A DNA stretch of 64,000 bases. It comes from Oceanisphaera marina (lineage in GTDB: Bacteria; Pseudomonadota; Gammaproteobacteria; Enterobacterales; Aeromonadaceae). Location of the stretch: positions 132,132 through 196,131 of the forward strand of contig NZ_BMKE01000002.1 of NCBI RefSeq assembly GCF_014643915.1, given 5' to 3'. Both the position numbers and the translations under genes were made by a program. Numbering within the stretch: the stretch's first letter is position 1; each line of letters starts with the position of its first letter. Below, one piece after another: positions 354 through 34,298 of the stretch. The notes beneath the pieces are model-generated. The model was not told the origin of the DNA and did no database searches. It saw only the letters and a list, made by a program, of their open reading frames with translations.

Positions 354-1907
354 TTATTCGACGACCAAATCACCCAGGTACGGGAAGTCCATGGCGTTCA
401 CCACCGCTTCGGCACCTATGTTATCGCGCGCACCCCAGGCGAGATCCTGCCAATGCAGCGGCACGAAAGCGGCATCGTCATACAGGATTTTTTCTGCCTG
501 CTGCAGCATCTTGCCGCGTTTTTCGCCATCGGTTTCCAGGTTGGCGGACTCAATCAACTGATCCAGCTCCGGGTTGGCATAGTGACCGCAGTTATACTGG
601 CCGCGGCCGGTTTCTTCATTGCGGGTCATGGTCAGGAATTCGGAGAAATTGGCCGCATCTTCGGTATCCGAGTGCCAACCAATCATCAGCATGTCGGCGT
701 TGCATTTATCGAACTCGGGCCAGTATTGCGCCACCGGCATGGTTTTGAGATCCACATCGATATTAATGCGCGCCAGCATCGCCTTTACCGCTTCGGCAAT
801 TCTAAAGTCGTTTACATAACGGTTGTTGGGCGCAATCATGCTGATTTTAAAGCCGTCTTTATAACCGGCGTCAGCCATCAGCTGCTTGGCTTTGTCCAGA
901 TCAAAACGGGGCTTCAGCTCAGGATTGTGGCCCACATAACCGGCCGGAGCCTGTTGCGATGCCGTGGTGCCAAAGCCGCGCATGATGCGTTTTACAATAC
1001 CGTCCTGATTCACCGCGTAGTTCACCGCCTGGCGCACTCGCACATCTTTAAAGGGCTCGAAACGATCCTGGTTCAGCTGAAAGGTAATAATGCGCGTGCC
1101 CGATTCGGTCACCAGCTTGACGCCGTTGGCCGATTTGACGCGATTTTGGTCGTTGGGCGAAACCGGTTTGATGAAGTCGACGTCACCGGCCAGCAAGGCC
1201 GCCACTCGAGTAGCGTCTTCCTTAATCGGCACCAGCGTCATGTTTTGTACGTTACCCGGTGAGGCGTTATCCCAGTAGTCGGCGTTACGTTCGTATTCTA
1301 CCTTAACGCCCTGCTGGCGGAACTTGAGCTTGAAAGGGCCGGTACCAGAAGGATGGGTCGACGCAAACGAGCTGCCATGTTTCACCACGGCCCCCTTGTC
1401 TTGACCGTCATCGGTTTTACCGCTGTAGTACTTGGAATCCATCGGGAACAGATAGGTCACGGTATTCAGTACCAGCGGAAACGGCCCTTTGGTCACCAGG
1501 TCGACCGAATACTTATCTACCCTGGACGCCGCACTGAAGGGGTTGAAAATAGCCTTGAAGTCCGGCGATTCTTTCAGGCGATTAAAGGTCCACACCACAT
1601 CATCGGCAGTCAACTCGTTGCCACTGTGAAAGGTGACGCCCTTGCGTAAATGGAAGCGCATGGTGTTTTCATCAATCCGTTCCCACTTTTCTGCCAGGCG
1701 CGGCTCAATGTCGAAATCTTTGGTCCAACGTACCAGCGGGTCGAACAACAGATGCGACATCTCCATGGTGGCGCCCGACAGCTGCTCATGCGGATCCATA
1801 GAGACAGGATCCGCATCGTAGGCAATGGTGATATCCGCCGCCTGAACACTGAATGCCAGCCCGGCAGCCAGCAGCGCTGCCGTTACTTTATTGAGTCCTT
1901 TTTTCAT
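354..1907 (-). CDS. ABC transporter periplasmic substrate-binding protein, family 5 (peptide/nickel type)
   Basis: 517-aa product with signal peptide MKKGLNKVTAALLAAGLAFSVQA. The 523-aa ORF 354..1925 is trimmed to the Met at 1907 before the signal peptide. Homology across the whole length is to DppA/OppA-like binding proteins. Confidence 0.85.
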   Translation of the reverse strand: MKKGLNKVTAALLAAGLAFSVQAADITIAYDADPVSMDPHEQLSGATMEMSHLLFDPLVRWTKDFDIEPRLAEKWERIDENTMRFHLRKGVTFHSGNELTADDVVWTFNRLKESPDFKAIFNPFSAASRVDKYSVDLVTKGPFPLVLNTVTYLFPMDSKYYSGKTDDGQDKGAVVKHGSSFASTHPSGTGPFKLKFRQQGVKVEYERNADYWDNASPGNVQNMTLVPIKEDATRVAALLAGDVDFIKPVSPNDQNRVKSANGVKLVTESGTRIITFQLNQDRFEPFKDVRVRQAVNYAVNQDGIVKRIMRGFGTTASQQAPAGYVGHNPELKPRFDLDKAKQLMADAGYKDGFKISMIAPNNRYVNDFRIAEAVKAMLARINIDVDLKTMPVAQYWPEFDKCNADMLMIGWHSDTEDAANFSEFLTMTRNEETGRGQYNCGHYANPELDQLIESANLETDGEKRGKMLQQAEKILYDDAAFVPLHWQDLAWGARDNIGAEAVVNAMDFPYLGDLVVE

Positions 1908-9478: not shown

Positions 9479-10390
9479 TTAAGCGCTGTGCTTGAACAGG
9501 CTGAGCGCTTTTATCAGCAACAGCACCACCATGCCGGCGAATATGCCGATAACGGCGTTCAATAACAGAGGGGTCAGCCAGAGCAGCGTGCCTCCTACCC
9601 CGGGCAGGCCCTGACTCAGCTCTGCCCAGTGGTGAATCACCTGCTCGATGACGGGCAAACCATGTACCAGAATGCCGCCCCCCACCAGAAACATGGCGGC
9701 AGTGCCCACCACCGACAAGCCCTTCATTAAATAAGGGCAGGCCGCCAGCAATACCTCTCCGGCTTTTTTCAGTACACCGGTTTTCTGACTGAGATACAGC
9801 CCCAGATCATCGAGCTTGACGATGCCCGCCACCAGACCGTACACGCCTACCGTCATCAGCAAAGCAATGCCTGCCAGTACCGTCACTTGCTGACCAAAGC
9901 CAGCCCCCGCCACCGTGCCCAGGGTAATCACGATAATTTCGGCCGACAAAATAAAATCGGTACGAATGGCGCCCTTGATCTTGTCTTGCTCAAACGCCAC
10001 ACGGTCAACCGAGGGGGCAAGATCGGCCAAGTGAGGCTTATCTTCGCCCTCTTGGTGCATAAAAGAATGCACCAGCTTTTCTACCCCCTCGTAGCACAGA
10101 AACGCCCCGCCCAGCATCAATAACGGCACTATGGCCCAAGGCGCAAAGGCACTGATCACCAAGGCGGCCGGCACCAGTATCACCTTGTTACGCAAAGAGC
10201 CTTTTGCGACCGCCCATACTACCGGTAACTCTCGTTCAGCTCGTACGCCCGATACCTGCTGGGCATTCAGAGCCAAATCATCCCCCAGCACACCGGCGGT
10301 TTTTTTGGCCGCTACCTTGGTCATCAGTGAAATATCGTCAAGCAAGGTCGCAATATCGTCGATCAGGGTCAGCAGACTGGCTCCGGCCAT
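9479..10390 (-). CDS. DUF808 (YedI-like) inner-membrane protein
   Basis: Full-length similarity to E. coli YedI-family proteins ([46 protein letters not shown]…). Confidence 0.8.
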
Positions 10391-22074: not shown

Positions 22075-23049
22075 GTGCACATGGCCCTTAGCTTACCCGA
22101 ACACTGCCTTACTGCCGAAGGGGTTGAACGACGTCTTGGCGTTGAGCTTGAGCTAAACGGCCTGCCCCTGCCTCGGTTGGCCGGGCTGGTGGCCGAACAA
22201 CTCGGCGGCACTCTGCAACCGCAGTCGGAATACGAAATAGACATAGAAACACCTCTGGGTACCTTTCGCGCCGAGCTGGACTTCGATTATCTGAAACGGC
22301 TGGCGCGAGAACAGCTCAAGCAACCGCCCGGAGAACTCGAATTGGCTGCCACCGAGCTGTTGGGCACCCTGGCCTTTCAACTGGTACCACTCGAACTGAT
22401 CAGCCCGCCACTGCCCTTATCGCAGCTGGTCTGCCTAACACCCTTGTTTGAACGTCTGAGGCTGGCCGGCGCCAAAGGGACCCGCCATGCCCTGCACTAC
22501 GCTTTTGGTTTGCACCTTAATCCCGAGCTGCCAGATACCGATAGTCATACCCTGCTGCGCTACTTCAAGGCTTATTTATGCCTGCACGACTGGCTGGAAG
22601 AGCACGAAGACATAGTGGCTGCGCGCAAGGTGTCGCCCTATATTCGCGCCTTTGGCAAAGAGTACAGCCGCCGGGTTATCGACGTGCATTACTGGCCTGC
22701 CTTGCCCGCCTTTAGTGCCGATTATCTATTGGCCAATCCCAGCCGTAACCGGTCACTCGACTTGCTGCCCTTGTTGGCCTGGCACGATGAGGCGCAAGTA
22801 CAAAGAGCGGTACAGGACGACAAGGTCAACAAACGCCCCACCCTGCACTATCGTCTGCCCAACTCGGATATCGATAACCCCAACTGGTCCCTGGATCATG
22901 CCTGGCGGGGCTGGCTGCAGGTAGAGTCCCTGGCCAACGATGAACACCGGCTGGCCCAGGTATGCCAGCACTACGCCGCGCATCTTGACCAGCTCACGCC
23001 GGACTTCTTAAACCCGTGGAAATACAAGGTCATCCAATGGCTCCGCTAA
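22075..23049 (+). CDS. Putative amidoligase (Amidoligase_2 / glutamine-synthetase-like fold)
   Basis: 324 aa. The similarity is to the uncharacterised amidoligase enzyme family, which is typically paired with C26 gamma-glutamyl hydrolases. Confidence 0.6.
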   Translation: MHMALSLPEHCLTAEGVERRLGVELELNGLPLPRLAGLVAEQLGGTLQPQSEYEIDIETPLGTFRAELDFDYLKRLAREQLKQPPGELELAATELLGTLAFQLVPLELISPPLPLSQLVCLTPLFERLRLAGAKGTRHALHYAFGLHLNPELPDTDSHTLLRYFKAYLCLHDWLEEHEDIVAARKVSPYIRAFGKEYSRRVIDVHYWPALPAFSADYLLANPSRNRSLDLLPLLAWHDEAQVQRAVQDDKVNKRPTLHYRLPNSDIDNPNWSLDHAWRGWLQVESLANDEHRLAQVCQHYAAHLDQLTPDFLNPWKYKVIQWLR

Positions 23050-23726
23050 TTGGCGTCACCGGACCCGACAGCAGACTGCCCTGGGCCTGGTGGGCAACCC
23101 GTCTGGCCATTCGCCTGGCGGGTGGGCGGGCGCTGCGCTTGACCCCCAACAGCTTTCGACCCCACAAGAGAGACAAGCTGCAGGGGCTGATTATTGGCGG
23201 CGGCGACGACATAGATGCCGCCTTATACGGCGAAGACACCGGCCGCGCCCCGGCCGATCCCAGGCGGGATGCCTTTGAAATAGAGCTGATTGAGCACGCT
23301 CTGCAAACCCAACTGCCGTTATTGGGTATTTGCCGCGGTGCCCAGCTGATCAACGTGGTACTCGGGGGATCCTTGCATGCCGATATTCGCCCCCAACGCC
23401 AACACACTTCCAACCGTCGCACCCTGCTACCACGCAAAACCGCCCTGGGCACAGGCGAGGGGCGGTTACATCATATTATGGGCCAGTCACGCTGGCGTAT
23501 TAACAGCCTGCATCATCAGGCGGTCAAACGACTGGGCGCTCAGCTTGAGGTGACTGCACGCGATCTGGACGGCTTTGTACAGGCCATCGAATATCGGGGC
23601 GATCACGCCATTCTGGGAGTACAGTGGCATCCGGAATACCTGCCTTATCTGGCTGGTCAGCGGGAAATTTTTCGCCATTTAGTGGCGCTGGCCAAAGCCA
23701 CCTCTCCCGAGCGACTCTATCCCTGA
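23037..23726 (+). CDS. Class-I glutamine amidotransferase-like / peptidase C26 gamma-glutamyl hydrolase (PuuD-like)
   Basis: The catalytic Cys is in GICRGAQLIN, with the His in the LGVQWHPE context, matching PuuD (GICRGLQ…GVQWHPE). Start chosen at MAPLIGVTG, overlapping the amidoligase by 13 nt. Confidence 0.8.
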   Translation: MAPLIGVTGPDSRLPWAWWATRLAIRLAGGRALRLTPNSFRPHKRDKLQGLIIGGGDDIDAALYGEDTGRAPADPRRDAFEIELIEHALQTQLPLLGICRGAQLINVVLGGSLHADIRPQRQHTSNRRTLLPRKTALGTGEGRLHHIMGQSRWRINSLHHQAVKRLGAQLEVTARDLDGFVQAIEYRGDHAILGVQWHPEYLPYLAGQREIFRHLVALAKATSPERLYP

Positions 23727-24157
23727 TGCTGGATTACCTCATTGTTTTTACCAGCAGCCTGCTGGCGGCCACCATAGCGCCCTTTTACTCGGAAGTGGTG
23801 CTGGCTGCCGTGCTCACCCGCCAGCCCGACGCCGCCCTGTTGTTGTGGTTGCTGGCAAGCATCGGCAATACCCTGGGCGCCATCGTCAACTGGTGGCTCG
23901 GCAAATACCTGCTGCATTATCGCCACAAGCGCTGGTTCCCCATCAAGGAAAAACAATTAGTCAAAGCCCAGGCCGGCTTTCAGCGCTTTGGCGTCTGGAG
24001 CTTGTTGTTGTCCTGGGCGCCCATCGGCGGCGATGCCCTGACCTTTATTGCCGGCATCATGAAGGTACAGCTGCTGCCTTTTACGCTGTTGGTGTTTATT
24101 GGTAAGGCAGCCCGCTACGCCGTGGTGATCTGGCTTGCGGATACGCTGCTGTTGTAA
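23726..24157 (+). CDS. yqaA: YqaA-family (DedA-related) inner-membrane protein
   Basis: Aligns with E. coli YqaA along its length (…NSEVVL…LLSW.P..GD…GKA.RY…). Start at MLDYLIV. Confidence 0.75.
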   Translation: MLDYLIVFTSSLLAATIAPFYSEVVLAAVLTRQPDAALLLWLLASIGNTLGAIVNWWLGKYLLHYRHKRWFPIKEKQLVKAQAGFQRFGVWSLLLSWAPIGGDALTFIAGIMKVQLLPFTLLVFIGKAARYAVVIWLADTLLL

Positions 24158-24193: not shown

Positions 24194-25276
24194 TTAAAAG
24201 GTCTGGCGTAAAGCCTGCTTGAGTTCCTCTTCGGCGCGAGCAATTTCCAGCTCGGCCGCGGCCCGTTGCCGACGCCCGTCACGATAATGCTCCAGGGTGC
24301 TGTTGAGGGTATCTATGGTGATGCGGTTCACTTCTTTCAGGGAGTCCAGATCCAGAATGCCGCGCTGGTAATTACCGGCAATCTCCTGCTCCAGCTGCTG
24401 CAGCTTCTGGGCATTACGTACATATTGCTGATTGGTATAGTCTTTGACGGCTCGCGTCACCTGCAAGGCCTTTTCTTTTTCATAGTTGGAAATTGCAATC
24501 AAGAATTGCCGTTTCCATAACGGAATGGTGTTGTGACAGATATCCTGAATATCTTCCATCAACATCTTGTTGCCTTCTTGGGACAGCCGGATTTGCGGTG
24601 CGGTTTGCAGTGCCGCCAGGCGCACCGCACTCAGATTGGCCAGACGTTTTTCCAGGCGCCCCAGCGCCTGTTGCAAATCACGCAATGCCTGTGCATCTAC
24701 CGGATCGCCGCTTGCCTCGGCCTTGCTCTGCAAGGTGGGCACCTGCTGTTCAAGCAAGGTGTTCAGCTTAAGCTTGCCGGCGGCAATATACACATCCAGT
24801 TGCTGCAGTAGATGCAAATTTTCCTGATACAAGCCATCGAGGCGCTCAATATCCGTGGTCAGTTGGTGCTCATGGGCACGCAACTGCCCCTCCAGGGCAT
24901 CGAGACGATCCTTTACCGAATCAAACCCCTTGATAAAGCTGCCAAAGGTCTGAAACAGTTCGCCAATAAGCGGCAGGCGACTGAGAAAGCTGTCGGGGCG
25001 AATCCGGTCCAACTCACAGCCTTTCATCTGGCCTATCATGGCATCCAGAATGTCTCCGGCTTCGCCCGTATCTCGACTGCGAATATTATCCAGCACCCGA
25101 TCTGAAAAGGCGGTAATGCGCTCCATCGCCTCCTTGCCAAAGGTGATGGTCGCCACTGAATCGAGCGGATCAAGACTGGCGGCAATGCTCTGAACTGCCT
25201 GTTGTTCGTCTGTGTGCAGATCCCCTGGCCGCGTTTCGGCGAGAGCCTGTGTTTGCAAAACGGGTTCATTGGGCAT
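24194..25276 (-). CDS. telA: Toxic anion resistance protein, TelA/KlaA family
   Basis: 360 aa with full-length TelA-family similarity. Start set at the second ATG (MPNEP…), which has AAGGAG six nt upstream. It overlaps the PLD gene stop. Confidence 0.8.
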   Translation of the reverse strand: MPNEPVLQTQALAETRPGDLHTDEQQAVQSIAASLDPLDSVATITFGKEAMERITAFSDRVLDNIRSRDTGEAGDILDAMIGQMKGCELDRIRPDSFLSRLPLIGELFQTFGSFIKGFDSVKDRLDALEGQLRAHEHQLTTDIERLDGLYQENLHLLQQLDVYIAAGKLKLNTLLEQQVPTLQSKAEASGDPVDAQALRDLQQALGRLEKRLANLSAVRLAALQTAPQIRLSQEGNKMLMEDIQDICHNTIPLWKRQFLIAISNYEKEKALQVTRAVKDYTNQQYVRNAQKLQQLEQEIAGNYQRGILDLDSLKEVNRITIDTLNSTLEHYRDGRRQRAAAELEIARAEEELKQALRQTF

Positions 25277-25976
25277 GAAATACTCCTTCATGGTGTAGTT
25301 GCCACAAGCGGTTAAACTCCCCCACGTAGGCTGACACCAGCGGCTCGTTGTCGGTCAGCAACAGGTTTTCCTGGTTGTACTGGCTGGCGCTGCGCGTCCA
25401 GTTAAAGCTGCCATTGAGCAGCCAGCGTCGGTCGAACAGCGCGAACTTGTGGTGCATGTGATAGGGGCTGGTATCGAGCAAGACCTCGACGCCCTTGCGA
25501 CTAAGATAATCCACGTCACTGCCCCTGTCGTTGGCCTTGTCCTGATCGCTCAGCACCCGCACCGCCACCCCCTTGTTGTGGGCCGCCAGCACCGCCTGGG
25601 TAAGGCGATCGTCGGACAAGGTAAATACGCAAATATCCAGTTGCGTTCGGGTCTGCTCAATCAAGCCGATAATGGCCTCTAGACAATCGCGCCCCGGTGA
25701 AAACCAGGCCCCGGATGTGACTGGCTGTACCTGCAGGCGGGCACGATCCAGCGTCTGGATTACCCGCTCCAGCCAGATAACCACCTCGGTGTTTAACTGG
25801 CCGTCTCTGGAGCGTTCGCGCGCCAATTCAAAGGCTTTGTTACGGGCAAAGGACAATAACTCCGGCTGAGAGACCAGACCATCAAACAGCAGCCCCAGAT
25901 CTCGCCGCTCTTCCTTGGAAAGACGGCCATCGGCCAGGGTCAGTCGCAGCTGCATTTCCAGCTCTTGTTGTGTCAT
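25266..25976 (-). CDS. Phospholipase D-family (HKD) protein with an N-terminal TerB-like domain
   Basis: HKD motif HMHHKFALFD…GSFNWT. The N-terminus LTLADGRLSKEERRDLGLLFDGL resembles the TerB ADG motif. Its ATG overlaps the stop of the giant gene (ATGA). Confidence 0.75.
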   Translation of the reverse strand: MTQQELEMQLRLTLADGRLSKEERRDLGLLFDGLVSQPELLSFARNKAFELARERSRDGQLNTEVVIWLERVIQTLDRARLQVQPVTSGAWFSPGRDCLEAIIGLIEQTRTQLDICVFTLSDDRLTQAVLAAHNKGVAVRVLSDQDKANDRGSDVDYLSRKGVEVLLDTSPYHMHHKFALFDRRWLLNGSFNWTRSASQYNQENLLLTDNEPLVSAYVGEFNRLWQLHHEGVFHAQ

Positions 25977-28900
25977 TCGATAGACTCCTTATCCGCCGCG
26001 CCGACGAGGGCGGCTTTATCATCAGTGCCCTGCATCATGGACCAGGCCAGGGTGCGCAGGTGGCTGCCAATGCCCTTCATTTCATCGGCGATCACACCCA
26101 CCTTGTCGACCGGCTGATGCTGTTGGCGATAACGGGCGCAAATGGCGGCCCAGCGGTCGGCCTGCTCGGGTGTCAGAGTCCCGCGCAGCTCGGCCAGCTT
26201 GAGCAGGTTTTCTTCGGTGCCCTGGGTCAGTGTTTGCGCCTCGCCCAGATAGTGATCGTCAAGCAGGCGTTGCAGCTCTTGCTCTGTCATGACCGCCATC
26301 ACTTTTTCCGCCAGCTTGTTCATGTTGCGATAAGAGCCCTGCAACTTGAACGGCGGCTCGGTGCGGTAATCGTCGGCCGAGGCGGCGGACGCGATATATT
26401 GCTGGTTAACCTTGAGCACCACCTGCTGCACTTGCAACAACCGGCTGAGAACGCCGGTGATCTCGCGAGCTTCATGGGCGGAATAGTTGTATTCCAGCTC
26501 ACTGAGTGCAATGTCTTCGCCGCGCGCCATGGCCACCAGCAAGTAAAGGTCCTTGAGATTGCGACTGGCCAGCGGCGCCAGCACCGGGTTGGACGAGAGG
26601 GCATTTTCCACATAAGACAACTCAAAGGCCGCTCGCTGATCAGACAGCATGTCACCCAGGTTATAAATATCGGCGCGGTTGGCCAACATGTCGGGCAGGC
26701 GAAACACTTCTCCCGACTCGGTATAGGGATTGCCCGCCATCACCAGCGCAAAGCGCTTGCCTTTCATGTCATAGGTTTTGGGTTGGCCGCGCCAGACGCC
26801 ATCGATGCGCCGCGTGCCATCACTCAGGGAGATAAATTTCTGCAAAAACTCGGGGTGCGTATGCTGAATATCATCCAGATACAAGAGCACGTTAGCGCCC
26901 ATTTCCAGCCCCAGATTAAGCTTTTCTATCTCGCGGGCAGCGGTGGCATTAGGCGCATCCGCCGGATCCAGCGACACCACCTCGTGTCCCAGCGACGGGC
27001 AGTTGATTTTCATAAACACCATGCCCAGCTTGCCGGCTATGTATTCCACCAGTGTGGTTTTGCCGTAACCGGGAGGCGATATCAACATCAACAGACCCAT
27101 TTGATCGGTTCGACGAGCCGTTCCCATGGCCCCCAGTTGCTTGGCAAAGTTGTCTCCGATCAAGCCCAGATAAGACTCACTGATCAGTTTGTTGCGTACG
27201 AAGCCACTGAGCGGACGCGCCTGAAACTGATCGGGGCGCAACTCGTCTCTGGCTTGCTCGAGCAAAGTCGAGCGCCTCGCCTGAAAGGCATCAAAGGCCG
27301 GTAATACCTGTTGTTGGTGATATTCACCCCGCGTTAAAAAGTCATCCAGGCTGAGTATCAGCTCTCCCCCATCCAACCTCGGATGGTCGGCCAGTAATCC
27401 TTGCACGCGTACCGCCAACGAGAAATCGAGCGGGCGCAACACCAGCTCGCTGTGCTCTTTAAGGCAGGCCAGCGCCGCCGCTTCAACCACGAAGCTGTCG
27501 GGTCTTTGCTGCTGTTCACAAAATGCCTGCAGCCACAGTTGATGCTCGGCACAGCTCTCGACACTGATTGAACTATCACCCTGCCAACCTAAGCTGCGGC
27601 GAAAGGACAGATAATCCGAGGCCAGTTCATCCGCATCCCGGCTGATCAGGATATCGCCATCGATGGCGAGTTGGCGCAACAGATAGTCGGCGGTTTGCCG
27701 GGTATCTATCGCCTCGGCAACGAGCCCGAGTTCCTGTATCGACAACGCCAACTGCTGCTGTAATTGCTCATACAAAGATGACTGCCCAAGATGTTGTTGT
27801 AATTGCAGGGCGTCTTGACCACGGCGACGCCAGTGCTCGCGCTGGATCTTAGGCTGGGCAGATAACCACAAGAGCCCGGTCGCGCGGGCGCGCTGGCCAA
27901 AGCGTAATAATCCCGCCTCTCTATACAAGGGCCAGAGCGCCGTAAGCAGGCACACTGCGTCTTGATCGTGAATGCCCTTTACATAACCATCGCGATAACG
28001 GCTGGCAGCAAAACGCTGTACTAATCCGGTCAATGTGCCTTCTTTGAGCGCCGCTTCCAGCACCTCGGGCGAGAGGTCTTCTTGTCGGCGCTCCACTTGC
28101 TGCAACAGGCAGTAAGCCAGATATTCAGAGCGGCTAAGCTGCGGGCTTTCCGAGGGTAGCGTCAGCTCACCAAACCGGCTCAGGGTTTCCAGCTCGGCAT
28201 CCACCACCGGCTCGTAAAAGTCGGTGCCGGTAAGATGCAGCGCCAGTTGCTGCTGCCTTTGCACCAGGGTCAGGGCCGGCTCTTGAGTGTTGACCGCAAA
28301 CCGATGTCGACCCAGCTTGAGCACGCTGCCCCCCTGCTCAAAGATATCCTGATTATCTCGCAGGGTACTCATTGCCTGTTCTTTCAGGGTCTTTACGCGC
28401 CCGCGTACCGCTTCGGCACGCACGCTGCCGCCCAGTTGCTCCATTTGAGTGGCAAGCTGCGCCAGCTTGTGCACCATGGCATCGGCGGCAAAATAACCGT
28501 TAAGCTCCGCCAACTGGTCGAAACGTCGCACTCGCTTGTCGATGCTGGCCAGCGTAATCTCTGCCGCCTGCGCCAGGTTGTCGAGCCGCTTTTGTCGCGC
28601 CGCAAGCAACTGTTGTTTGCGCGATTCCAGACTGGACTGTATCTCGTCACGTTTGTGATAGATGTCAGCCAGAAACTGATCGAATTCGGCAAAACGGCTT
28701 TCCAGTTTTTCAATCATGCCCATCAGTCGCGCCTGCTGTTCGTCGCAGCTTTCTGGACTGTCGGCCTGCCCCAGTGCCGACGTGACCGCCTGGGTCAACA
28801 ACTTGAGCTGAGCCTCAAACTCGGCCTCTGCCTCGCCTTGACGCAGTTGCTGATGACGCTGGCGCAATCGAGCCAGACAGGCATTGAGCCGCGCCACCAC

Positions 28901-30898
28901 TTCAGTAGTCAGATCGAGAATACGGGTCGCCTGGGTCGCATCCTGAGTTTCAATTTCGGCCACTTCTTCGTTGATCAGATCCAAAGACTGATGGATTTCA
29001 TCCGCCTGCTCACGCAGTCGATCCAGCTCGACTGTGGTAGTACATTCGGGCAGAGCCCGTTCCAGCTCATCAATGACCTTGAGAAAAGGCTGATACGCCT
29101 GCTCTTTCTGTAACAACCCCAGCAGTCGCTGATTAAGCTGCTCACGGCCGTGTTCGAGCTGTTGCTCCAGCTCCAACAGACGTGCTTCATCCACATAACG
29201 GCCACCCTTGAGACTGATCACCCGCCCCAGCTGGGTTTTGATTCCGGCCAATAATTGAATAAGCTGCGCGGCATCGTCATCCGGGCTCAGTTTGATGCGG
29301 CCCAGCAACGTCTGCTGCTCCTGCGCCAACTCGGCAATGGCGCTATCGGTTTGCTGGCGCAACAGCTGTACCTTGGCAAACTCATCGACGATTTGTTCGG
29401 CGGTGGTGGTGATTTCACGCACCTGAGCACCCAACTTGCCTGCTGCATCGTCATCGAGCCAATGATAGTTATCGAGCGTGCGTCCACAAAAGGTCACCAG
29501 AATTTCATACAGCGAACGGGTCACCTCCTGGGTACGACAATAGGAGACGATACTGTTGATTTCGGCGATACCACGCACCAGTTCGGCATTGCCGATATTG
29601 GCGAAAAAAGGATGTTGATGCTGGTGTTGGTCAGCCTCGTAAATTTCGAGGGTCATGAACGGCGTTTGCCAGATGCGCAGCGGGTGCAGTTTGCTGGCCA
29701 CACTGTTATCAGTGAGGCGAAACATCAACATGCGGCCATCGTTATAAAGGCTGTAGCCGTGATTGTAGTTAGGTGGACTGACGCTTTTCTCGATCAGGTT
29801 GTAGCTATAGTGCAGGTAGGCGCCTTGAACGGGATCAAAAAAGATAAACAGCACATCTTCGCCATTGGGAGCCTGTTCCCGATGGAAATAGCGCATCTGC
29901 CGCCAGTCTTCGTCAAATAGCCGAGCGTCTCCATCGGCCAGCAGATAGCCGTTGGCAAATAACAGGCCGTGATCTTCTGGTAGTAACTTGCAGCTCGCCC
30001 CGATGGCATCGGCGCGCACGACTTTTTCGGTCAGTCGGTTGTACGCCAGATAACGGTAGTCTTTCTCACGGTTAGGCCGCACCTTGAGCAGAATAAACCC
30101 CGCCGCCTCGGCATAATGGACTTCGGTATCGGCCAGCGTCTGGTGGACGTCTTCCACCGGCTCGTTGAATATTTCCAGACCGTCGGGGGTGTTGTTTTCA
30201 ATACGAACACTGAGGCTGCCTGCCAGACAGTCGACAAACAGCTGATCGAGGATCATCAGGTGTGGTCTGTCTCCCTGCACCTGATGATCTCGCCCTGCCA
30301 ACTGCCATTGCACATCCTGCTGGGGCGCTTCATCCAGCTGGGCTTGACCCGGATCGTCCAGATATTCGACGCGACCGTCTGCGTGCAGCTGCCAGCGATA
30401 GACCTTGCGATCTTCCAGCCGCGAGCCAATTTGAAACACCAGATACAACCAGCTGCCGCGCCGGCTGATTTGGGTCAAACGCGTATCTTTGTAGTAGGTG
30501 AGCAGTTCATTAAAGGAGTGGCGAAAACGGGCATCGTCGAGAAAAGTATCCGCCAGTGGCAGCTCTTCTACTCGAAACTGACCGTCATGTTCGACCAGTC
30601 GATATAATCCCAGTACTTCTTCCACGGACGGGACGGCTTTAAGCCCCACTTGTACACGATAGCCAAACAGCAAGAGGCCGTTGATCTGCGCTATGTCTAT
30701 GGGCAGGCAACGATGTTCGGTATGTACATTGACCCTGCCCAGCAGCTCCTGGGCTCGGGCACCAAAGGCCTGTTGGCGAGCCTGATTAAAACTGCCGGCA
30801 TCTTCGGCCAGCGCCTTGCCTTGCTCGGCCAGGCGGGCGCGCAGTATCTCGTAGGATCCTTCGCCGGCCACCGCCTCATTAAGTTGATGTTGTTCCAT
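25973..30898 (-). CDS. Giant (1641 aa) uncharacterised protein with extensive coiled-coil regions and one P-loop AAA+ ATPase module near residue 1320
   Basis: A single uninterrupted ORF. Walker A is LISPPGYGKTTL, Walker B is VLLYLDDIQH, and sensor-1 is ALVMAGNP. Residues about 480-900 are Gln/Leu/Glu/Arg-rich coiled coil. The N-terminal 450 aa show no similarity I recognise. Confidence 0.75.
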   Translation of the reverse strand: MEQHQLNEAVAGEGSYEILRARLAEQGKALAEDAGSFNQARQQAFGARAQELLGRVNVHTEHRCLPIDIAQINGLLLFGYRVQVGLKAVPSVEEVLGLYRLVEHDGQFRVEELPLADTFLDDARFRHSFNELLTYYKDTRLTQISRRGSWLYLVFQIGSRLEDRKVYRWQLHADGRVEYLDDPGQAQLDEAPQQDVQWQLAGRDHQVQGDRPHLMILDQLFVDCLAGSLSVRIENNTPDGLEIFNEPVEDVHQTLADTEVHYAEAAGFILLKVRPNREKDYRYLAYNRLTEKVVRADAIGASCKLLPEDHGLLFANGYLLADGDARLFDEDWRQMRYFHREQAPNGEDVLFIFFDPVQGAYLHYSYNLIEKSVSPPNYNHGYSLYNDGRMLMFRLTDNSVASKLHPLRIWQTPFMTLEIYEADQHQHQHPFFANIGNAELVRGIAEINSIVSYCRTQEVTRSLYEILVTFCGRTLDNYHWLDDDAAGKLGAQVREITTTAEQIVDEFAKVQLLRQQTDSAIAELAQEQQTLLGRIKLSPDDDAAQLIQLLAGIKTQLGRVISLKGGRYVDEARLLELEQQLEHGREQLNQRLLGLLQKEQAYQPFLKVIDELERALPECTTTVELDRLREQADEIHQSLDLINEEVAEIETQDATQATRILDLTTEVVARLNACLARLRQRHQQLRQGEAEAEFEAQLKLLTQAVTSALGQADSPESCDEQQARLMGMIEKLESRFAEFDQFLADIYHKRDEIQSSLESRKQQLLAARQKRLDNLAQAAEITLASIDKRVRRFDQLAELNGYFAADAMVHKLAQLATQMEQLGGSVRAEAVRGRVKTLKEQAMSTLRDNQDIFEQGGSVLKLGRHRFAVNTQEPALTLVQRQQQLALHLTGTDFYEPVVDAELETLSRFGELTLPSESPQLSRSEYLAYCLLQQVERRQEDLSPEVLEAALKEGTLTGLVQRFAASRYRDGYVKGIHDQDAVCLLTALWPLYREAGLLRFGQRARATGLLWLSAQPKIQREHWRRRGQDALQLQQHLGQSSLYEQLQQQLALSIQELGLVAEAIDTRQTADYLLRQLAIDGDILISRDADELASDYLSFRRSLGWQGDSSISVESCAEHQLWLQAFCEQQQRPDSFVVEAAALACLKEHSELVLRPLDFSLAVRVQGLLADHPRLDGGELILSLDDFLTRGEYHQQQVLPAFDAFQARRSTLLEQARDELRPDQFQARPLSGFVRNKLISESYLGLIGDNFAKQLGAMGTARRTDQMGLLMLISPPGYGKTTLVEYIAGKLGMVFMKINCPSLGHEVVSLDPADAPNATAAREIEKLNLGLEMGANVLLYLDDIQHTHPEFLQKFISLSDGTRRIDGVWRGQPKTYDMKGKRFALVMAGNPYTESGEVFRLPDMLANRADIYNLGDMLSDQRAAFELSYVENALSSNPVLAPLASRNLKDLYLLVAMARGEDIALSELEYNYSAHEAREITGVLSRLLQVQQVVLKVNQQYIASAASADDYRTEPPFKLQGSYRNMNKLAEKVMAVMTEQELQRLLDDHYLGEAQTLTQGTEENLLKLAELRGTLTPEQADRWAAICARYRQQHQPVDKVGVIADEMKGIGSHLRTLAWSMMQGTDDKAALVGAADKESIE

Positions 30899-30959
30899 GA
30901 TTAGATGATTCCAGGCTGGTAAGCGAACGGGGGCCGCATAACGGCCCCCTCCTTGCGGT

Positions 30960-33041
30960 TTACTCCTGTTTGGCGTCGCCTGTTACCAGCTGCTGCAGTT
31001 TATCCTGCAGGTTGCCGTTGCCATTGAGTTTGGTCAGCAGGTTGGCCAGCGCCAAATTGCTCACCGTGCCTGTGTCTATCTTGGAATTTTCCAGTACCGC
31101 GCGAATATCGTCGGACAGGCTGCGGCCTTGTTCAGTGTATTCACGCACCAGTGGCTTGAGCACTTCGCTGCTGCCAATGCGGCTGTCGAGTTTGGCGCTG
31201 CTCATCACGGTGCGACGCAGCTCTTCCATACCCTGACCGCCAAACAGCTTGATGTCCGCGTTGGACAGTGCCGTTGCCAGTGCCTTGGCACTGTCGACCG
31301 ACATCGACTTTTGGGCGTCGATACGGGCAATTTCCAGCTCTTTCTGCTGCTGCAGTTCCAGCACCCATTTGTCGTGCTCACGGGTTTGATCGTCAAATTT
31401 CTTCGCCGCTTCAAAACGTGCCGTCTGGGTTTCGGCTTCGGCCAGCCCTTTGGCGCGCAGCGCCTGGGCCTCGGCATCACCTTTGGCTCTGTGGCTTTCG
31501 GCTTCAGCCAGACCAAGCGAAGAAATAGCAGCGGCTTCGGCGTCGCCGGTTTCACGAATCGCCATGGCACGCTCGCGATCCACACCGACCTGCGCCAGCC
31601 CTTCGGCACTGATTTCTTCACGCAGGGCATGGGCCATGCGCTCTTTGGCTTCGGCACGTTTGGTTTCCTGAATCAGTTCGGCCTCGGCTTCGCGGGTCTT
31701 CACATTCAGATCGTTTTCCGCTTCGCGGGTACGGATCTTGATTTGAGCTTCGCTTTCCAGGGTTTGCTTTTCCATCCATTCCTGAGCAGCCTGCTTCTCG
31801 GTGCGGGCCATGACCACGGAGCGAATGCCCTCGGCTTCGGCTGCCGCCTCGGCCTCTACCAGGCGCACTTTTTTCTCGCGCTCGACAAGCTGGAAGGCGC
31901 GCAAATTGGCGGTTTCTTCTTCTTCACGTGCTATCTTGCGCTCGATTTCAACTCGCTGAGATTGCGTTTCCACCACCGCCTTGCGGGCTTCTTCCAGCGC
32001 AGCCTCTTTCTCCATGGTCTGCTGGGCAATTTCCCGCTCGGTACGTACCCGTTCGGTTTCCTTGGCGCGATTGACTTCTTCCTGCTGAATAGCCACCTGA
32101 CGCTCGTTGCTGCTGCGGGTTAAATCCACTTCCATCTGCAACGATTCCTGGCGCTTGGCCACGTTTTCTTCGGTCTGCAGACGCGCCAGTTCTTTTTGAC
32201 TGACATATTCCTGACGCTTCTCTTCGGTCAGGGCTTCTTCTTGAGCACGAATGATCTCGATTTCGCGCTTTACGCGAGCCAGGTTTTCCTGCTCCTGCTT
32301 ATCAAGCTGAGCGCGGTTGCTTTCGGCCTCTACGTTCTTTTGCTTGATTAAGGTTTGCTCGTCCTGACGAATGGCGTTGGTTTCAATATTTTTACTGGAG
32401 GTAATAGAAGCAATCTTGCGAATACCTTCCACATCCAATACGTTTTGCGGATCGTGGGCGTCAAAACAGGTCTGATCTACGCGGTCAATAACCACATCGT
32501 AGATCTTGAACCCATCCATCTCGGAGCCAATCACTTCCACCACAGCATCCCGAAATTCACGGCGGTTGGTGAGCAGCTCTTCAAATTCAAACTGCTTAAC
32601 GGCGGTTTTCAGGGCCTCTGAGAATTTGGGCTGAAAATGTTCTTTCAGCCGATCCAGCTGAGACGCACCAATGGTGGTGAACAGCTTGGCCACGCGAATA
32701 ATATCTTCTTCTTCGTGGTTAACACCGATATAGAAGTCTACTTTCAGGTCGGCACGAATATTATCCCGGCAATGCAAACCTTCCGATTCCTCACCCAACT
32801 GGTCTTTACGACCACTGCGGATCACCGAAATTTTCTTGCGCGTGATATCCATAAACTCACCGCGATTAACGACAGGCCACACAAAGGCACCGGTAAGCGT
32901 AGCGCGCGTCCGTCTGCTGCCGTTAACAATAAGTGCTTCACCTTCATGGCGTATTTTGTAATAGCGGCTGGTCAGAAAAACAAGTATCAAGACTATCAGG
33001 CCGGCAAGCCCACCGACAAAATAGTACAAAGGGGTAAACAT
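30960..33041 (-). CDS. Flotillin / SPFH (band-7) family protein, YqiK-like but extended (693 aa)
   Basis: N-terminal TM helix, then an SPFH domain, then a Glu/Ala/Arg/Lys-rich coiled coil of about 320 residues with repetitive EAE/AEA heptads. Confidence 0.8.
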   Translation of the reverse strand: MFTPLYYFVGGLAGLIVLILVFLTSRYYKIRHEGEALIVNGSRRTRATLTGAFVWPVVNRGEFMDITRKKISVIRSGRKDQLGEESEGLHCRDNIRADLKVDFYIGVNHEEEDIIRVAKLFTTIGASQLDRLKEHFQPKFSEALKTAVKQFEFEELLTNRREFRDAVVEVIGSEMDGFKIYDVVIDRVDQTCFDAHDPQNVLDVEGIRKIASITSSKNIETNAIRQDEQTLIKQKNVEAESNRAQLDKQEQENLARVKREIEIIRAQEEALTEEKRQEYVSQKELARLQTEENVAKRQESLQMEVDLTRSSNERQVAIQQEEVNRAKETERVRTEREIAQQTMEKEAALEEARKAVVETQSQRVEIERKIAREEEETANLRAFQLVEREKKVRLVEAEAAAEAEGIRSVVMARTEKQAAQEWMEKQTLESEAQIKIRTREAENDLNVKTREAEAELIQETKRAEAKERMAHALREEISAEGLAQVGVDRERAMAIRETGDAEAAAISSLGLAEAESHRAKGDAEAQALRAKGLAEAETQTARFEAAKKFDDQTREHDKWVLELQQQKELEIARIDAQKSMSVDSAKALATALSNADIKLFGGQGMEELRRTVMSSAKLDSRIGSSEVLKPLVREYTEQGRSLSDDIRAVLENSKIDTGTVSNLALANLLTKLNGNGNLQDKLQQLVTGDAKQE

Positions 33042-33096
33042 TATCGTGCTCCTAGTTATAGTGATTTTTTTTGGGGGGATATCAAATAACAGACAA

Positions 33097-33690
33097 TTAT
33101 TGCTTGGTGATGAAATATCGCCGAGTCACATCATTGAAAGAAAGAATGCGAACTTCATCTCCATAATGCAGCTCTTCTTTATCATCACAATAAACATCAA
33201 GCTGATTTTCCACACTGCCACGAGTCACCACCACTTCACCGAAGTGTGCGCCCACTCGAGAAGTACGAACTCGAGCACGCATACCAATGTAATTGATGCT
33301 GGCGTAAACGCGGCTCTGATCAAACAAGGGAGCCAAAGGCTTCAGTATCCATGCAGCAAGGTAGAGACTGAGGTAACATGCCAGCGGTATGGCCAGAGTG
33401 GCGAGCGTATAAAACAGCCAGGCAGGAACCAAAGGCGTCACCAAATGAGAAAACATAAATAGTTCGGCCGTGGCTAAAAAAAACACCAAGGGTAAACTGA
33501 CCACGATGGGAATTTGAGTGATGCCTATGGGTAACAGCATATCGGGCAAGTCTGCGTCCACGTTCAGGCTGGGTAACAGCTCGTCAAACAAGCCGGTAAA
33601 TACCGAAAAGAGTAGCAGCAGTAAAAATAGCAAAAAGGGAATCGCTGTCATCACAACAGGAAAGGCAAAAAACGTTTGCCATACGTCCAT
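33097..33690 (-). CDS. YqiJ/NfeD-like inner-membrane protein (DUF1449) with a C-terminal OB-fold
   Basis: 197 aa with four TM helices and a soluble C-terminus (…GEVVVTRGSVENQLDVYCDDKEELHYGDEVRILSF…). It lies 55 nt upstream of the flotillin gene, as in yqiJK/nfeD-floT pairs. Confidence 0.7.
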   Translation of the reverse strand: MDVWQTFFAFPVVMTAIPFLLFLLLLLFSVFTGLFDELLPSLNVDADLPDMLLPIGITQIPIVVSLPLVFFLATAELFMFSHLVTPLVPAWLFYTLATLAIPLACYLSLYLAAWILKPLAPLFDQSRVYASINYIGMRARVRTSRVGAHFGEVVVTRGSVENQLDVYCDDKEELHYGDEVRILSFNDVTRRYFITKQ

Positions 33691-33816
33691 GATAAGGTCT
33701 CGTTTGTATGTTTACCCGATACTAAATGCGTATTCCAAAGTGAGCATCATATGCAGCATTTATTTTTGTGCTGCGCACAATCGAAAAGGAAACTAACAAA
33801 GCCATCTGCAATCGTC

Positions 33817-33841
33817 AACGTTAATATTTTATATTAACGTT
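33817..33841. promoter_or_regulatory. Perfect 11-bp inverted repeat AACGTTAATAT-ttt-ATATTAACGTT, about 125 bp upstream of the yqiJ-like gene; candidate operator
   Basis: Direct reading. It lies in the AT-rich divergent region between the yqiJ-like gene and acs. Confidence 0.5.
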
Positions 33842-34298
33842 ATTCACCCAACGACTTTCCAACCTTTTATAAGACCCAGTAAAATTCATCCTGTCGTAAT
33901 TTAAATAGTCGTTACCCCTCTAAATTCAGGGTGATTTAGTCGTACATACTGCTCTTGCTCAGCCATCGTCTTTAAAATAAAATCTTGCTAATAAATATCC
34001 AGCAACAGGCGCAGACCTTAACCTTTACTCATGCTCGTCACTAACATCAGAAAGCCGACGGCTTTGTTCATACTTCAAGCGGCATTTGCTATCGCTTTAC
34101 AACACGCATGCTACATGCGTGAATTTTGAACAAGCCGTACACTATCTGCATACAAACCAACAACAAAGCCTGCAAACTATGCTAGTAATGAGACATGGCT
34201 AGCCAAAAGTCTAATTGAGCGTGACGGCCTTCTGCGTCACCTTGTTACACAATAGTTACACCCCAGGGGTTATTGGTACTACACCAAGGAGCGGAATA

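Follow-up and report, generated by a model that had tools for sequence, protein, structure and literature searches.

A DUF3686-family AAA+ ATPase encoded next to a YqiK-type flotillin in Oceanisphaera marina and its probable place in an envelope-stress module

The window analyzed here is a stretch of 64,000 nucleotides from Oceanisphaera marina (contig NZ_BMKE01000002.1, positions 132,132 to 196,131), and it contains a minus-strand operon of five genes (Table 1). Its genes are closely spaced: the gaps measure 55 and 61 nt, the latter between the flotillin and ATPase genes, and the overlaps measure 4 nt between the ATPase stop and the start of the phospholipase D (PLD) gene and 26 nt between the PLD and TelA genes. 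It is flanked by housekeeping genes in synteny with Oceanimonas baumannii and does not resemble a defense island.

Table 1. Features of the operon and of the ATPase that it encodes (positions in the window; aa, residues of the ATPase)
Feature	Position	Strand	Basis
First gene: 197-aa YqiJ/YuaF-type (short NfeD-like) membrane protein	33097..33690	-	hydropathy, hhalign
Second gene: 693-aa flotillin/YqiK-type SPFH protein	30960..33041	-	hhalign, homologues
GC-only stem-loop, 8-9 bp, no T-tract, in the flotillin stop-ATPase start spacer	30929..30949	-	
Third gene: 1641-aa soluble DUF3686-DUF7902-AAA+ protein	25973-30898	-	ORF, translation, Pfam, homologues
Long helix (aa 3-45), β-propeller-like domain and helical bundle, together Pfam DUF3686, aa 1-500	29399..30898	-	
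Heptad-periodic Q/E/L/R-rich helical stalk including DUF7902, aa ~490-805	28484..29431	-	hydrophobic periodicity, Pfam
Small β-unit, all-α domain and connecting helix, aa 855-1235	27194..28336	-	AF2 model, conserved columns
Single AAA+ module, MoxR/dynein (AAA_5) fold class, with helical lid, aa 1237-1600	26099..27190	-	
Walker A, SPPGYGKTT, aa 1274-1282	27053-27079	-	
Walker B of DD type, LLYLDDIQH, aa 1338-1346	26861-26887	-	
Pre-sensor-1 β-hairpin	26768-26809	-	AF2 model
Sensor-1, MAGNP, aa 1387-1391	26726-26740	-	
Candidate Arg finger R1408, in LPDMLANRAD, aa 1401-1410	within 26669-26698	-	
Candidate sensor-2, R1524	within 26315-26338	-	
Fourth gene: 236-aa single-HKD PLD-superfamily hydrolase with 90-aa helical N-extension	25266..25976	-	Pfam
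Fifth gene: 365-aa soluble TelA-family protein	24194..25291	-	Pfam TelA E 1.2e-79; no TM segment

The first protein has three TM segments predicted from hydropathy and a C-terminal soluble β-domain; it has no Pfam match of its own, and its family profile aligns with E. coli YqiJ (hhalign, 93.8% probability, E 1.7e-7), with a faint PDB match to B. subtilis YuaF (2k14). The second begins with an N-terminal TM segment, the only one predicted, continues with a Band-7 domain and an extended coiled coil rich in Glu and Ala, and has a conserved domain at its C-terminus. Its family profile aligns with E. coli YqiK over 406 columns (hhalign, 99.9% probability, E 3e-34), PF01145 (Band_7) is found in its homologues of 40-50% identity, which go by the names flotillin or YqiK, and it has weak matches to NCBIfam FloT and Pfam Flot. 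The spacer between the flotillin and ATPase genes folds with -23.2 kcal/mol (z -1.9), and its stem lies at the same place in O. baumannii with a different loop; this element could possibly act as a partial terminator or in mRNA stability and in that way set the flotillin:ATPase ratio. The PLD protein matches Pfam PLDc_2 (E 1.6e-29) with an intact HKD motif (HHKFALFD...NGSFNWT). Among solved structures its best relative is MitoPLD/Zucchini, the "mitochondrial cardiolipin hydrolase" (E 1.5e-29), followed by Nuc (2.7e-10) and NucT, and its matches to the NucT, DrmC and DpdK models lie below their cut-offs; as judged from these matches, it stands equally near to nucleases (Zucchini, Nuc, NucT) and to lipid hydrolases, and by sequence alone a link to nucleic acids is conceivable. 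The flotillin and TelA neighbors named in a preliminary description of the locus are thus confirmed by the YqiK profile and by Pfam, respectively.

The ATPase ORF starts with ATG, is the longest of the region and encodes a protein of ~185 kDa for which hydropathy predicts no TM segments. Relative to the O. baumannii orthologue, mismatches at codon positions 1, 2 and 3 number 222, 149 and 749, and this bias to the third position marks the frame as coding and, on this sequence comparison, as being under purifying selection. Across many phyla the homologues are each encoded by one ORF of 1600-1900 aa, and conservation extends over the entire protein. Although frameshifted copies do exist, as seen in Veronia nyctiphanis, whose orthologue comes in two pieces of 433 and 1184 aa, the identical full-length architecture across hundreds of species, the third-position bias and the whole-length conservation refute the reading of the ORF as an assembly or frameshift fusion or as a non-coding chance ORF instead of a real single gene, to which we assign practically no probability. 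Thus, the continuous 1641-aa frame that the preliminary description had singled out as the largest ORF stands, and the frameshift or gene fusion against which it had cautioned is excluded by the full-length homologues. Its dismissal of the antisense plus-strand ORFs of 444, 292 and 221 aa as artefacts was similarly borne out: none of them occurs in the orthologues of Vibrio and Veronia, and the largest alone persists in O. baumannii.

The N-terminal 450 residues, for which no family could initially be named, match Pfam DUF3686 (PF12458) over aa 30-479 and model positions 2-448 of 448 with 501.5 bits (E 2.2e-150; gathering score 25 bits). In the structural model, aa 50-412 form a β-propeller-like domain of ~27 strands and aa 417-500 a helical bundle, suggesting that the bundle grips a β-propeller. 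In the stalk, windows that cover aa 491-805 show a 3.5-residue hydrophobic periodicity at 2-5 times the background level, and DUF7902 (PF25472) matches aa 600-683 (E 2e-16). Given that Pro and Gly interrupt the stalk at several points, it may equally well be a bundle of helical hairpins or a single long coiled coil; of the ~400-residue coiled coil proposed initially, the helical stretch holds, and its length is reduced to ~315 aa with Pro/Gly breaks. The middle region comprises a conserved β-unit (aa ~859-897, motif LGxHRFxVN), an all-α domain of ~250 aa and a long connecting helix, and is modeled well (pLDDT 87 for the AF2 model of aa 850-1641, mostly >90 for aa 855-1235). A second P-loop domain was rejected here because the order of secondary-structure elements in the model differs; a family assignment was not obtained for aa 855-1235.

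The C-terminal module has the Walker A and B motifs, sensor-1, candidate arginine finger and α/β core with helical lid of the AAA+ superfamily, and 67 family members of 32-58% identity all retain G1277, K1280, T1281, D1342, D1343, N1390 and R1408. It matches Pfam AAA, AAA_22 and AAA_5, the last of these above the cut-off. The solved folds closest to the modeled module are those of the MoxR ATPases CbbQ and NorQ (15-17% identity), followed by dynein and midasin. In total, the model and the motifs identify a MoxR/dynein-class AAA+ fold with invariant nucleotide-binding and hydrolysis motifs. This agrees with the preliminary description, which had seen a long helical scaffold ending in a single intact AAA+ module, had placed its Walker A, DD-type Walker B, sensor-1 and Arg-bearing segment correctly, and had held the protein to be neither a dynamin nor an SMC. 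A dynamin-like protein is rejected, since no dynamin or GTPase model of Pfam or NCBIfam matches and the sole P-loop domain has an AAA+ fold; similarly, an SMC/Rad50-type protein is rejected, since the P-loop module is single, contiguous and C-terminal and there is no ABC head split by a coiled coil, the weak matches to LmuB/JetC (E 0.03-0.17) being confined to the coiled-coil region. Among the affiliations that had been proposed for the module, AAA_5 and a MoxR-like fold are supported, the latter by a core nearest to MoxR proteins and by the pre-sensor-1 β-hairpin. A MoxR sequence profile is not: AAA_3, the Pfam model of MoxR, does not match, and the family profile aligns with E. coli RavA in the Walker A-B region only (hhalign, 4.4% probability, E 0.009) and insignificantly beyond the P-loop. 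An McrB-type assignment, including CoCoNuT CnuB, also fails, as the combination of an McrB-like core with an McrC partner and a nuclease was not found.

Two features of the module bear on its mode of action. First, the Walker B motif is DD instead of the canonical DE and is invariant in the family. Its DDIQ motif is also present in E. coli DnaA, which is a slow switch-type AAA+ protein, and based on this shared motif the ATPase may be a nucleotide-dependent switch or assembly factor rather than a processive remodeller. Second, the loop at the position of pore-loop 1 or the helix-2 insert is highly conserved and lacks an aromatic residue, which argues against classical threading of polypeptides.

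The ATPase belongs to a catalogued, uncharacterized family, Pfam DUF3686, which carries the NCBI name "DNA repair ATPase". There are more than 2390 full-length homologues. The family covers at least 585 species and, in a search with the DUF3686 domain alone, 595 clusters at 50% identity, the representatives of which are mostly 1600-1900 aa long with the domain N-terminal at residues ~10-490. All of the 120 homologues listed carry PF12458 and PF00004, and PF25472, and the ATPase shares this architecture of N-terminal DUF3686, middle DUF7902 and one C-terminal AAA domain. Our literature search found no experimental study of any family member, no paper containing DUF3686 or PF12458 and none supporting the "DNA repair" name, and Pfam and NCBIfam detect no DNA-binding or repair domain in the protein; we found no support for the name and regard the family as mislabelled. 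An operon of YqiJ/YuaF, Band-7/flotillin and ATPase genes, sometimes with PLD, has been described computationally by Ravi et al. 2024 (mSystems, PMC11237479) with Dokdonia donghaensis as the example. These authors describe the ATPase as "β-propeller + coiled-coil + AAA-ATPase", propose a role in sub-membrane dynamics and chaperone-like assembly, note PLD in "some Proteobacteria" and also describe an abbreviated operon form, to which the operon analyzed here corresponds given that tblastn with Pseudomonas proteins finds neither PspA nor DUF2170 in the window. The novelty implied by the preliminary description therefore does not extend to the family, its name or its operon; it holds insofar as the orthologues are annotated and catalogued, yet no experimental characterization was found.

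To what extent this arrangement is general was addressed at 80 ATPase loci from seven phyla (Gamma- and Betaproteobacteria, Myxococcota, Actinomycetota, Planctomycetota, Verrucomicrobiota and Bacteroidota). In 75 of them, the gene immediately upstream of the ATPase, on the same strand, encodes a YqiK-type flotillin; the other five are each cut off with at most 1.5 kb of sequence upstream of the ATPase, so that flotillin adjoins the ATPase in every locus with sufficient upstream sequence. The YqiJ/NfeD-like 3-TM gene precedes flotillin in 70/80 loci. PspA (PF04012, E 1e-57) and DUF2170/YjfI head the operon in 32 and 31-32 loci, respectively, PLD lies downstream of the ATPase in 15-16 and TelA adjoins the module in 11. 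Given these low counts, PLD and TelA are not core components and are accessory parts that extend the three-gene module in the window. In metagenomic contigs L083-L085 the order is TelA-YqiJ-flotillin-ATPase. A rhomboid gene (PF01694, E 4e-19) is present in eight loci of Pseudomonas, Xenorhabdus and relatives, directly after the ATPase, whose stop it usually overlaps (median start offset -3 nt). The recurrent neighbors are all membrane or envelope-stress proteins, with no DNA-repair protein among them. At one metagenomic locus, an Mrr_cat gene lies ~2.6 kb downstream of the ATPase.

Because the ATPase gene is nearly always beside a flotillin gene, a role in membrane stress rather than in DNA repair is most likely. 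On balance, we favor a model in which the ATPase is a soluble MoxR-class remodeller of a flotillin/NfeD membrane scaffold, i.e. the ATP-driven component of a conserved envelope-stress module of a YqiJ/NfeD-like protein, a YqiK-type flotillin and the ATPase. We infer ATPase activity, an oligomeric state and an interaction with flotillin, and suggest that (i) the AAA+ module would oligomerize into a ring, as AAA+ proteins of the MoxR/dynein class do, (ii) the helical stalks would hold the N-terminal β-propellers outward as adaptor "hands", (iii) the β-propellers would bind the flotillin/NfeD assembly at the cytoplasmic face of the inner membrane or, where PspA is encoded next door, could bind the ESCRT-III-like PspA polymer, and (iv) ATP binding and hydrolysis would serve to assemble, disassemble or remodel the scaffold during envelope stress. 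Alternatively, ATP could be used for loading client proteins at the scaffold, or extracting them from it, under these conditions. The variable downstream genes would encode lineage-specific effectors acting at the same membrane site, with PLD as a putative cardiolipin/phospholipid hydrolase and rhomboid as a putative intramembrane protease.

That this operon starts with PspA and the CesT/Tir-like protein that partners it, DUF2170/YjfI, in 31-32 of the loci could also indicate that the ATPase disassembles the PspA/IM30 polymer, the bacterial ESCRT-III, in a Vps4-like manner, with flotillin and YqiJ as a mere membrane platform; Ravi et al. 2024 (PMC11237479) reached the module via PspA neighborhoods and likened PspA-AAA+ pairs to Snf7-Vps4. 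We consider this unlikely, because PspA is absent from the window and from 48/80 loci whereas flotillin is adjacent wherever the upstream sequence suffices, and because Pfam finds no MIT domain in the ATPase. The rhomboid gene that typically overlaps the ATPase stop, together with the established theme of SPFH-AAA-protease supercomplexes, is compatible with HflK/C-FtsH-like quality control, in which a cage of flotillin would surround the AAA+ ring or recruit it and damaged membrane proteins would be unfolded or extracted and passed to a protease such as rhomboid. This, too, is improbable: rhomboid is confined to eight loci, neither the ATPase nor the operon in the window provides a protease, and the ATPase lacks an aromatic pore-loop motif and has a DD-type Walker B.

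A function directed at nucleic acids, in DNA repair or in anti-phage defense by abortive infection, would make the AAA+ module an McrB-like motor or sensor, PLD a nuclease effector and TelA/flotillin the membrane anchor. The Pfam description of DUF3686 as "ATPase involved in DNA repair" and the NCBI name point in this direction, as do the PLD matches to Nuc, NucT and Zucchini and weakly to the defense proteins DrmC, DpdK and MkoB/C, as well as the Mrr_cat gene at the one metagenomic locus; TelA and ter genes are also reportedly linked to phage and colicin resistance. We nevertheless regard this function as quite unlikely given that PADLOC gives no significant match for the ATPase (best E 0.03, coiled-coil region only) and none for flotillin, YqiJ or TelA, that PLD and TelA are each restricted to a minority of the loci, that the flanks are housekeeping genes syntenic with O. 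baumannii, and that the literature offers no paper in support of the repair name.

The remodeller model can be set against systems already described. The operon of Ravi et al. 2024 (PMC11237479) has the same ATPase domain order and the optional PLD (HKD) gene, and its YqiJ/YuaF 3-TM gene and flotillin also occur in the window, the latter 61 nt from the ATPase. The window lacks the dyad of CesT/Tir (YjfI/DUF2170) and PspA at the operon head and adds TelA, a word with no occurrence in the main text of that paper, which gives no Pfam identity, AAA+ clade or experiment for the ATPase. As in MoxR proteins (CbbQ, NorQ, RavA) and the AAA_5 modules of dynein and midasin, an AAA_5 match and a modeled pre-sensor-1 β-hairpin are present, and the pattern xGNPxxE...LPxxLxxR resembles the MoxR consensus. 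Unlike MoxR proteins, the ATPase is five times larger, with propeller, stalk and middle domain fused N-terminally, and has a DD instead of a DE Walker B and an insignificant RavA profile match. MoxR proteins normally act with a VWA-domain partner (e.g. ViaA, CbbO, NorD), whereas none is encoded by the five operon genes or by the scanned recurrent neighbor clusters.

The first two genes in the window are homologues of YqiJ and YqiK and parallel the NfeD-flotillin operons yqiJ-yqiK of E. coli and yuaF-floT of B. subtilis. No ATPase gene follows yqiK in E. coli K-12, where the sibD/ibsD locus comes next, and relative to these operons the ATPase-linked flotillins are longer (~690 aa versus 553 aa). 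SPFH scaffolds recurrently pair with AAA+ machines and proteases, as in HflK/C-FtsH and in mitochondria, where SLP2 partners with PARL, a rhomboid, and YME1L, an AAA protease. The DUF3686 ATPase differs from these in being soluble, in lacking a protease domain and in its AAA+ clade. By functional analogy, drawn from the genes only, the loci resemble these systems in the genetic coupling of an SPFH scaffold to an AAA+ ATPase, to which some lineages add a rhomboid protease and a MitoPLD-like hydrolase.

The DUF3686 ATPase gene shows near-obligate coupling to the YqiJ/YqiK flotillin gene pair and facultative coupling to the genes for PspA, PLD, TelA and rhomboid. In a linkage scan that used one GTDB genome per species and covered the best 80 of at least 585 positive species, from the Gamma- and Betaproteobacteria, Myxococcota, Actinomycetota, Planctomycetota, Verrucomicrobiota and Bacteroidota, a YqiK-type flotillin gene lies directly upstream of the ATPase gene on the same strand at 75 loci, and at the remaining five the sequence upstream of the ATPase gene extends for at most 1.5 kb. 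A YqiJ-like gene is present at 70 of the 80 loci, a PspA/IM30 gene at 32 and, further upstream, a DUF2170/YjfI gene at 31, while PLD (15-16 loci), TelA (11 loci) and a rhomboid protease gene directly after the ATPase gene (8 loci) are less frequent. In metagenomic contigs recovered via the flotillin homologue P0383 (L083-L085; e.g. L083 7107-16199), the order is TelA, YqiJ-like, Band_7 flotillin and DUF3686 ATPase; that TelA lies upstream and not downstream in these unrelated contigs argues that its link to the module is functional and not accidental. One such metagenomic locus carries a gene for a protein with an Mrr_cat restriction-endonuclease fold on the opposite strand ~2.6 kb downstream of the ATPase gene. 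At the Xanthomonadales loci L019, L025, L028, L038, L042, L053 and L059 (e.g. L059 15304-16062), the gene directly after that for the ATPase encodes a conserved protein of ~252 aa that is rich in Ala, Gln and Leu and lacks a Pfam match. In Lysobacter, Stenotrophomonas, Luteimonas and Thermomonas this gene stands between the ATPase and TelA genes, and it looks like a further lineage-specific accessory gene of the module.

An operon of this kind was described computationally by Ravi, Anantharaman, Aravind, Gennaro and colleagues (mSystems 2024, PMC11237479) as a CesT/Tir-PspA dyad with three further genes, in which a PLD hydrolase is sometimes included and of which abbreviated versions without PspA are more widely distributed; their supplementary table lists a 'Betapropeller+Coiled-coil+AAA-ATPase' architecture for Dokdonia donghaensis. 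The O. marina locus belongs to this operon type in its abbreviated form, lacking PspA and carrying PLD and TelA in addition. With the family catalogued and the operon described, the novelty implied for the ATPase in the preliminary description is not sustained.

Within the window the ATPase gene is the third of five tightly packed operon genes: the first three lie 55 and 61 nt apart, the ATPase and PLD genes overlap by 4 nt, and the PLD and TelA genes by 26 nt. The flotillin and YqiJ identities rest on hhalign comparisons with the E. coli proteins, and the corresponding family profiles retrieved nothing, or just a faint YuaF match, from the PDB; relatives of the flotillin carry Pfam Band_7. 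The closest solved relatives of the PLD protein are MitoPLD/Zucchini (E 1.5e-29), followed by the nucleases Nuc and NucT. The 61-nt spacer from the flotillin stop (30960) to the ATPase start (30898) contains a hairpin with 8-9 bp, all of them GC (GGGGGCCG-loop-CGGCCCCC), that is not followed by a T-run; in Oceanimonas baumannii (L003, ~9947-9968) the stem occurs at the same place with a different loop. This hairpin could lower read-through or steady the upstream flotillin mRNA and in that way give a high flotillin:ATPase ratio. The Rfam scan of the whole window gave no match, and promoter and terminator signals did not exceed what shuffled sequence gives. The G+C content of 32001-34000 is 0.46, compared with 0.52-0.59 elsewhere, and this low-GC stretch runs from the 5' portion of the flotillin gene through the YqiJ-like gene into an AT-rich 525-nt intergenic region shared with a divergent acetyl-CoA synthetase gene. 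The latter spacer presumably holds the operon promoter and regulatory region, and within it neither an Rfam family nor a convincing sigma-70 consensus was detected. Convergent with TelA lie three packed genes that are syntenic in O. baumannii, the second and third of which probably start later than their overlapping ORFs; the pairing of an amidoligase with an amidotransferase is suggestive of small-molecule metabolism of a γ-glutamyl or peptide-like kind.

Features of the DUF3686 ATPase and its surroundings (nucleotide positions refer to the window, aa positions to the ATPase)
Feature	Position	Size	Assignment or description
Operon gene 1, YqiJ-like	33097..33690 (-)	197 aa	three TM segments; E. 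coli YqiJ homologue, hhalign 93.8%
Operon gene 2, flotillin	30960..33041 (-)	693 aa	E. coli YqiK homologue, hhalign 99.9%, E 3e-34
Operon gene 3, DUF3686 ATPase	25973..30898 (-)	1641 aa	ATG start codon
DUF3686 (PF12458)	aa 30-479		Pfam, E 2e-150
DUF7902	aa 600-683		Pfam
AAA, AAA_22, AAA_5	aa ~1266-1400		Pfam
Walker A	aa 1274-1282		SPPGYGKTT
Walker B	aa 1338-1346		LLYLDDIQH
Sensor-1	aa 1387-1391		MAGNP
Arg-bearing segment	aa 1401-1410		LPDMLANRAD
Operon gene 4, PLD	25266..25976 (-)	236 aa	single-HKD PLD-superfamily protein
Operon gene 5, TelA	24194..25291 (-)		TelA, Pfam, E 1e-79
Hairpin	30929-30949 (-)	8-9 bp	GC-only
Intergenic spacer	33691-34214	525 nt	AT-rich
Three packed genes	22075-24157 (+)	324 aa; 236 aa; 177-aa ORF	Amidoligase_2; Peptidase_C26/class-I glutamine amidotransferase; VTT/DedA-type membrane protein

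The ATPase belongs to Pfam DUF3686 and to the AAA+ superfamily; the N-terminal ~450 residues, for which no family could initially be named, are covered by DUF3686. In a confident AlphaFold2 model of aa 1-500 (pLDDT 92) a long N-terminal helix is followed by ~27 β-strands, with a helical bundle at the C-terminal end, and the top Foldseek matches of this model in the PDB are all WD40 or 7-blade propellers, with E-values down to 3e-7 and low TM-scores. In the model, the helical bundle clasps a divergent β-propeller, and together they make up the N-terminal domain. The adjoining region, aa ~490-805, has a strong 3.5-residue hydrophobic periodicity with several Pro/Gly interruptions and is a predicted helical stalk of ~315 residues, which may be a hairpin bundle and need not be a single long coiled coil. 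No TM segment is predicted in the protein. The model of aa 850-1641 (pLDDT 87) comprises a β-unit that is small and conserved, ~250 residues in an all-α domain, and a single AAA+ module, which carries a helical lid as well as a pre-sensor-1 β-hairpin. The idea that aa 855-1235 form a second, degenerate AAA+ domain was rejected, the order of secondary-structure elements in the model not being βαβ.

The Walker A, Walker B, sensor-1 and Arg-rich segments recognized in the preliminary description are all in place, and its picture of one intact C-terminal AAA+ module on a helical scaffold, neither dynamin nor SMC, was largely right. The key motif residues are invariant among 67 family members sharing 32-58% identity with the query. 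The family departs from textbook remodelling AAA+ proteins in (i) the invariant DD of Walker B and (ii) the loop at the pore-loop position, which is strongly conserved and lacks an aromatic residue; together these sequence features suggest that the protein acts as a switch or in the manner of a MoxR chaperone and not by processive threading. The DDIQ motif is shared with E. coli DnaA, and kinship with DnaA was rejected because the likeness is limited to this motif (E 0.067). By fold, the modelled AAA+ module is of the MoxR/dynein class. Nevertheless, classing the ATPase as a MoxR protein is not warranted, given that its profile match to RavA is insignificant, that AAA_3 is absent from the Pfam hits and that no gene for a VWA-domain partner is found in the window operon or among the scanned recurrent neighbours. 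Membership of McrB, SMC or dynamin was likewise rejected. PDB searches with the single protein and with the family profile returned only P-loop-level matches (RuvB, p97, NVL), so that by sequence search the ATPase has no solved relative in the PDB, and NCBIfam and PADLOC gave no significant match.

Combining the linkage data with the structural models, we lean towards a model in which the ATPase is a soluble MoxR/dynein-class remodeller of the flotillin/NfeD scaffold in envelope stress. In this model, the AAA+ modules would form a ring, with the stalks holding the propellers outwards as adaptors. On the cytoplasmic side of the membrane, the propellers would dock onto the flotillin/NfeD assembly or, where it is encoded, onto PspA. 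Nucleotide turnover would assemble, disassemble or remodel the scaffold or its clients during envelope stress, and the accessory enzymes would have lipids or membrane proteins at that membrane site as their substrates. A Vps4-like action on PspA is unlikely, PspA being absent from the window and from most loci. An HflKC-FtsH-like quality-control machine is likewise unlikely, as the ATPase has no protease domain and a rhomboid is found at so few loci. Participation in nucleic-acid repair or defence appears quite improbable: the core has no defence-model hits, PLD and TelA are not core genes, McrB is a poor structural match to the AAA+ module, and the recurrent neighbours at the 80 loci are all membrane or envelope-stress proteins, with no DNA-repair gene among them. 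That the ORF is an artefact and not a genuine single gene can practically be discarded, given its coding-type substitutions and the full-length ORF in hundreds of species.

Those substitutions were counted against the O. baumannii orthologue (84% identity), where 222/149/749 differences at codon positions 1/2/3 identify the minus-strand frame, as originally called, as coding. The family is encoded as a single ORF of 1600-1900 aa in those hundreds of species, which rules out a fusion or frameshift. The plus-strand ORFs of 444, 292 and 221 aa, initially taken for composition artefacts, are present in the window and missing from the Vibrio and Veronia orthologues, and so are by-products of sense-strand composition. 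Synteny with O. baumannii (acetyl-CoA synthetase, VTT/DedA protein, glutamine amidotransferase, amidoligase and SHMT) and the housekeeping genes that flank the operon indicate that the window is chromosomal, from an Aeromonadales bacterium of the Oceanisphaera/Oceanimonas type. The flotillin matches an Oceanisphaera marina protein at 100% identity, while a lookup with the exact ATPase sequence retrieved no contig. The ATPase gene was not found in E. coli genomes. In Veronia nyctiphanis CAIM 600 (L036, 7834-14853), frameshifts split the genes for the flotillin (429 + 339 aa) and the ATPase (433 + 1184 aa), reflecting either a decaying module or assembly errors.

NCBI records name the ATPase 'DNA repair ATPase' and the flotillin 'peptidase', and we found no support for either name. 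Most Vibrio and Photobacterium orthologues of the flotillin are also called 'peptidase' in NCBI and UniRef, which looks like a wrong name for a Band-7/YqiK-type flotillin that has been passed on between records. The searchable literature yielded no mention of DUF3686 or PF12458, no experimental work on any family member and nothing on links of TelA-flotillin-NfeD, YqiK-AAA+-propeller or 'DNA repair ATPase'-flotillin; a search for TelA, flotillin, AAA and phospholipase D together gave only irrelevant papers, and a paper on P. aeruginosa SPFH proteins covers neither the YqiK-type flotillin subclass nor the ATPase. The DUF3686 ATPase is thus a new member of a catalogued family that has been noticed computationally. 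As the flotillin-ATPase association is already in the literature, the window is one more example of it. The present analysis places the N-terminus in a Pfam family and the AAA+ module in the MoxR fold class, quantifies the gene linkage across phyla, shows that TelA and rhomboid recur beside the module and that its PLD partner is MitoPLD-like, argues against the 'DNA repair' label, and puts two misannotations right.

The locus bears on two questions: what bacterial flotillins do and how their large assemblies are put together and dismantled, and what TelA does, a puzzle since its discovery. Coupling of the ATPase gene to a flotillin gene in at least seven phyla provides a concrete, testable lead on these questions and makes the DUF3686 family a good experimental entry to flotillin and TelA biology, even if specialists familiar with the 2024 survey will not find it surprising. 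We tentatively suggest that the ATPase might be the dedicated energy-consuming partner of a bacterial flotillin subclass. If so, it would be the first known ATP-dependent regulator for bacterial flotillins, and the long enigmatic 'tellurite resistance' protein TelA would join a flotillin-based membrane-repair pathway. In this picture, a MoxR-class ring with six arms would hold the flotillin/NfeD cage in its propeller 'hands' and, working with lineage-specific effectors (a MitoPLD-like cardiolipin hydrolase, rhomboid protease, PspA and TelA), would be a possible bacterial counterpart of the mitochondrial SPFH-AAA-rhomboid-cardiolipin hub for membrane maintenance.
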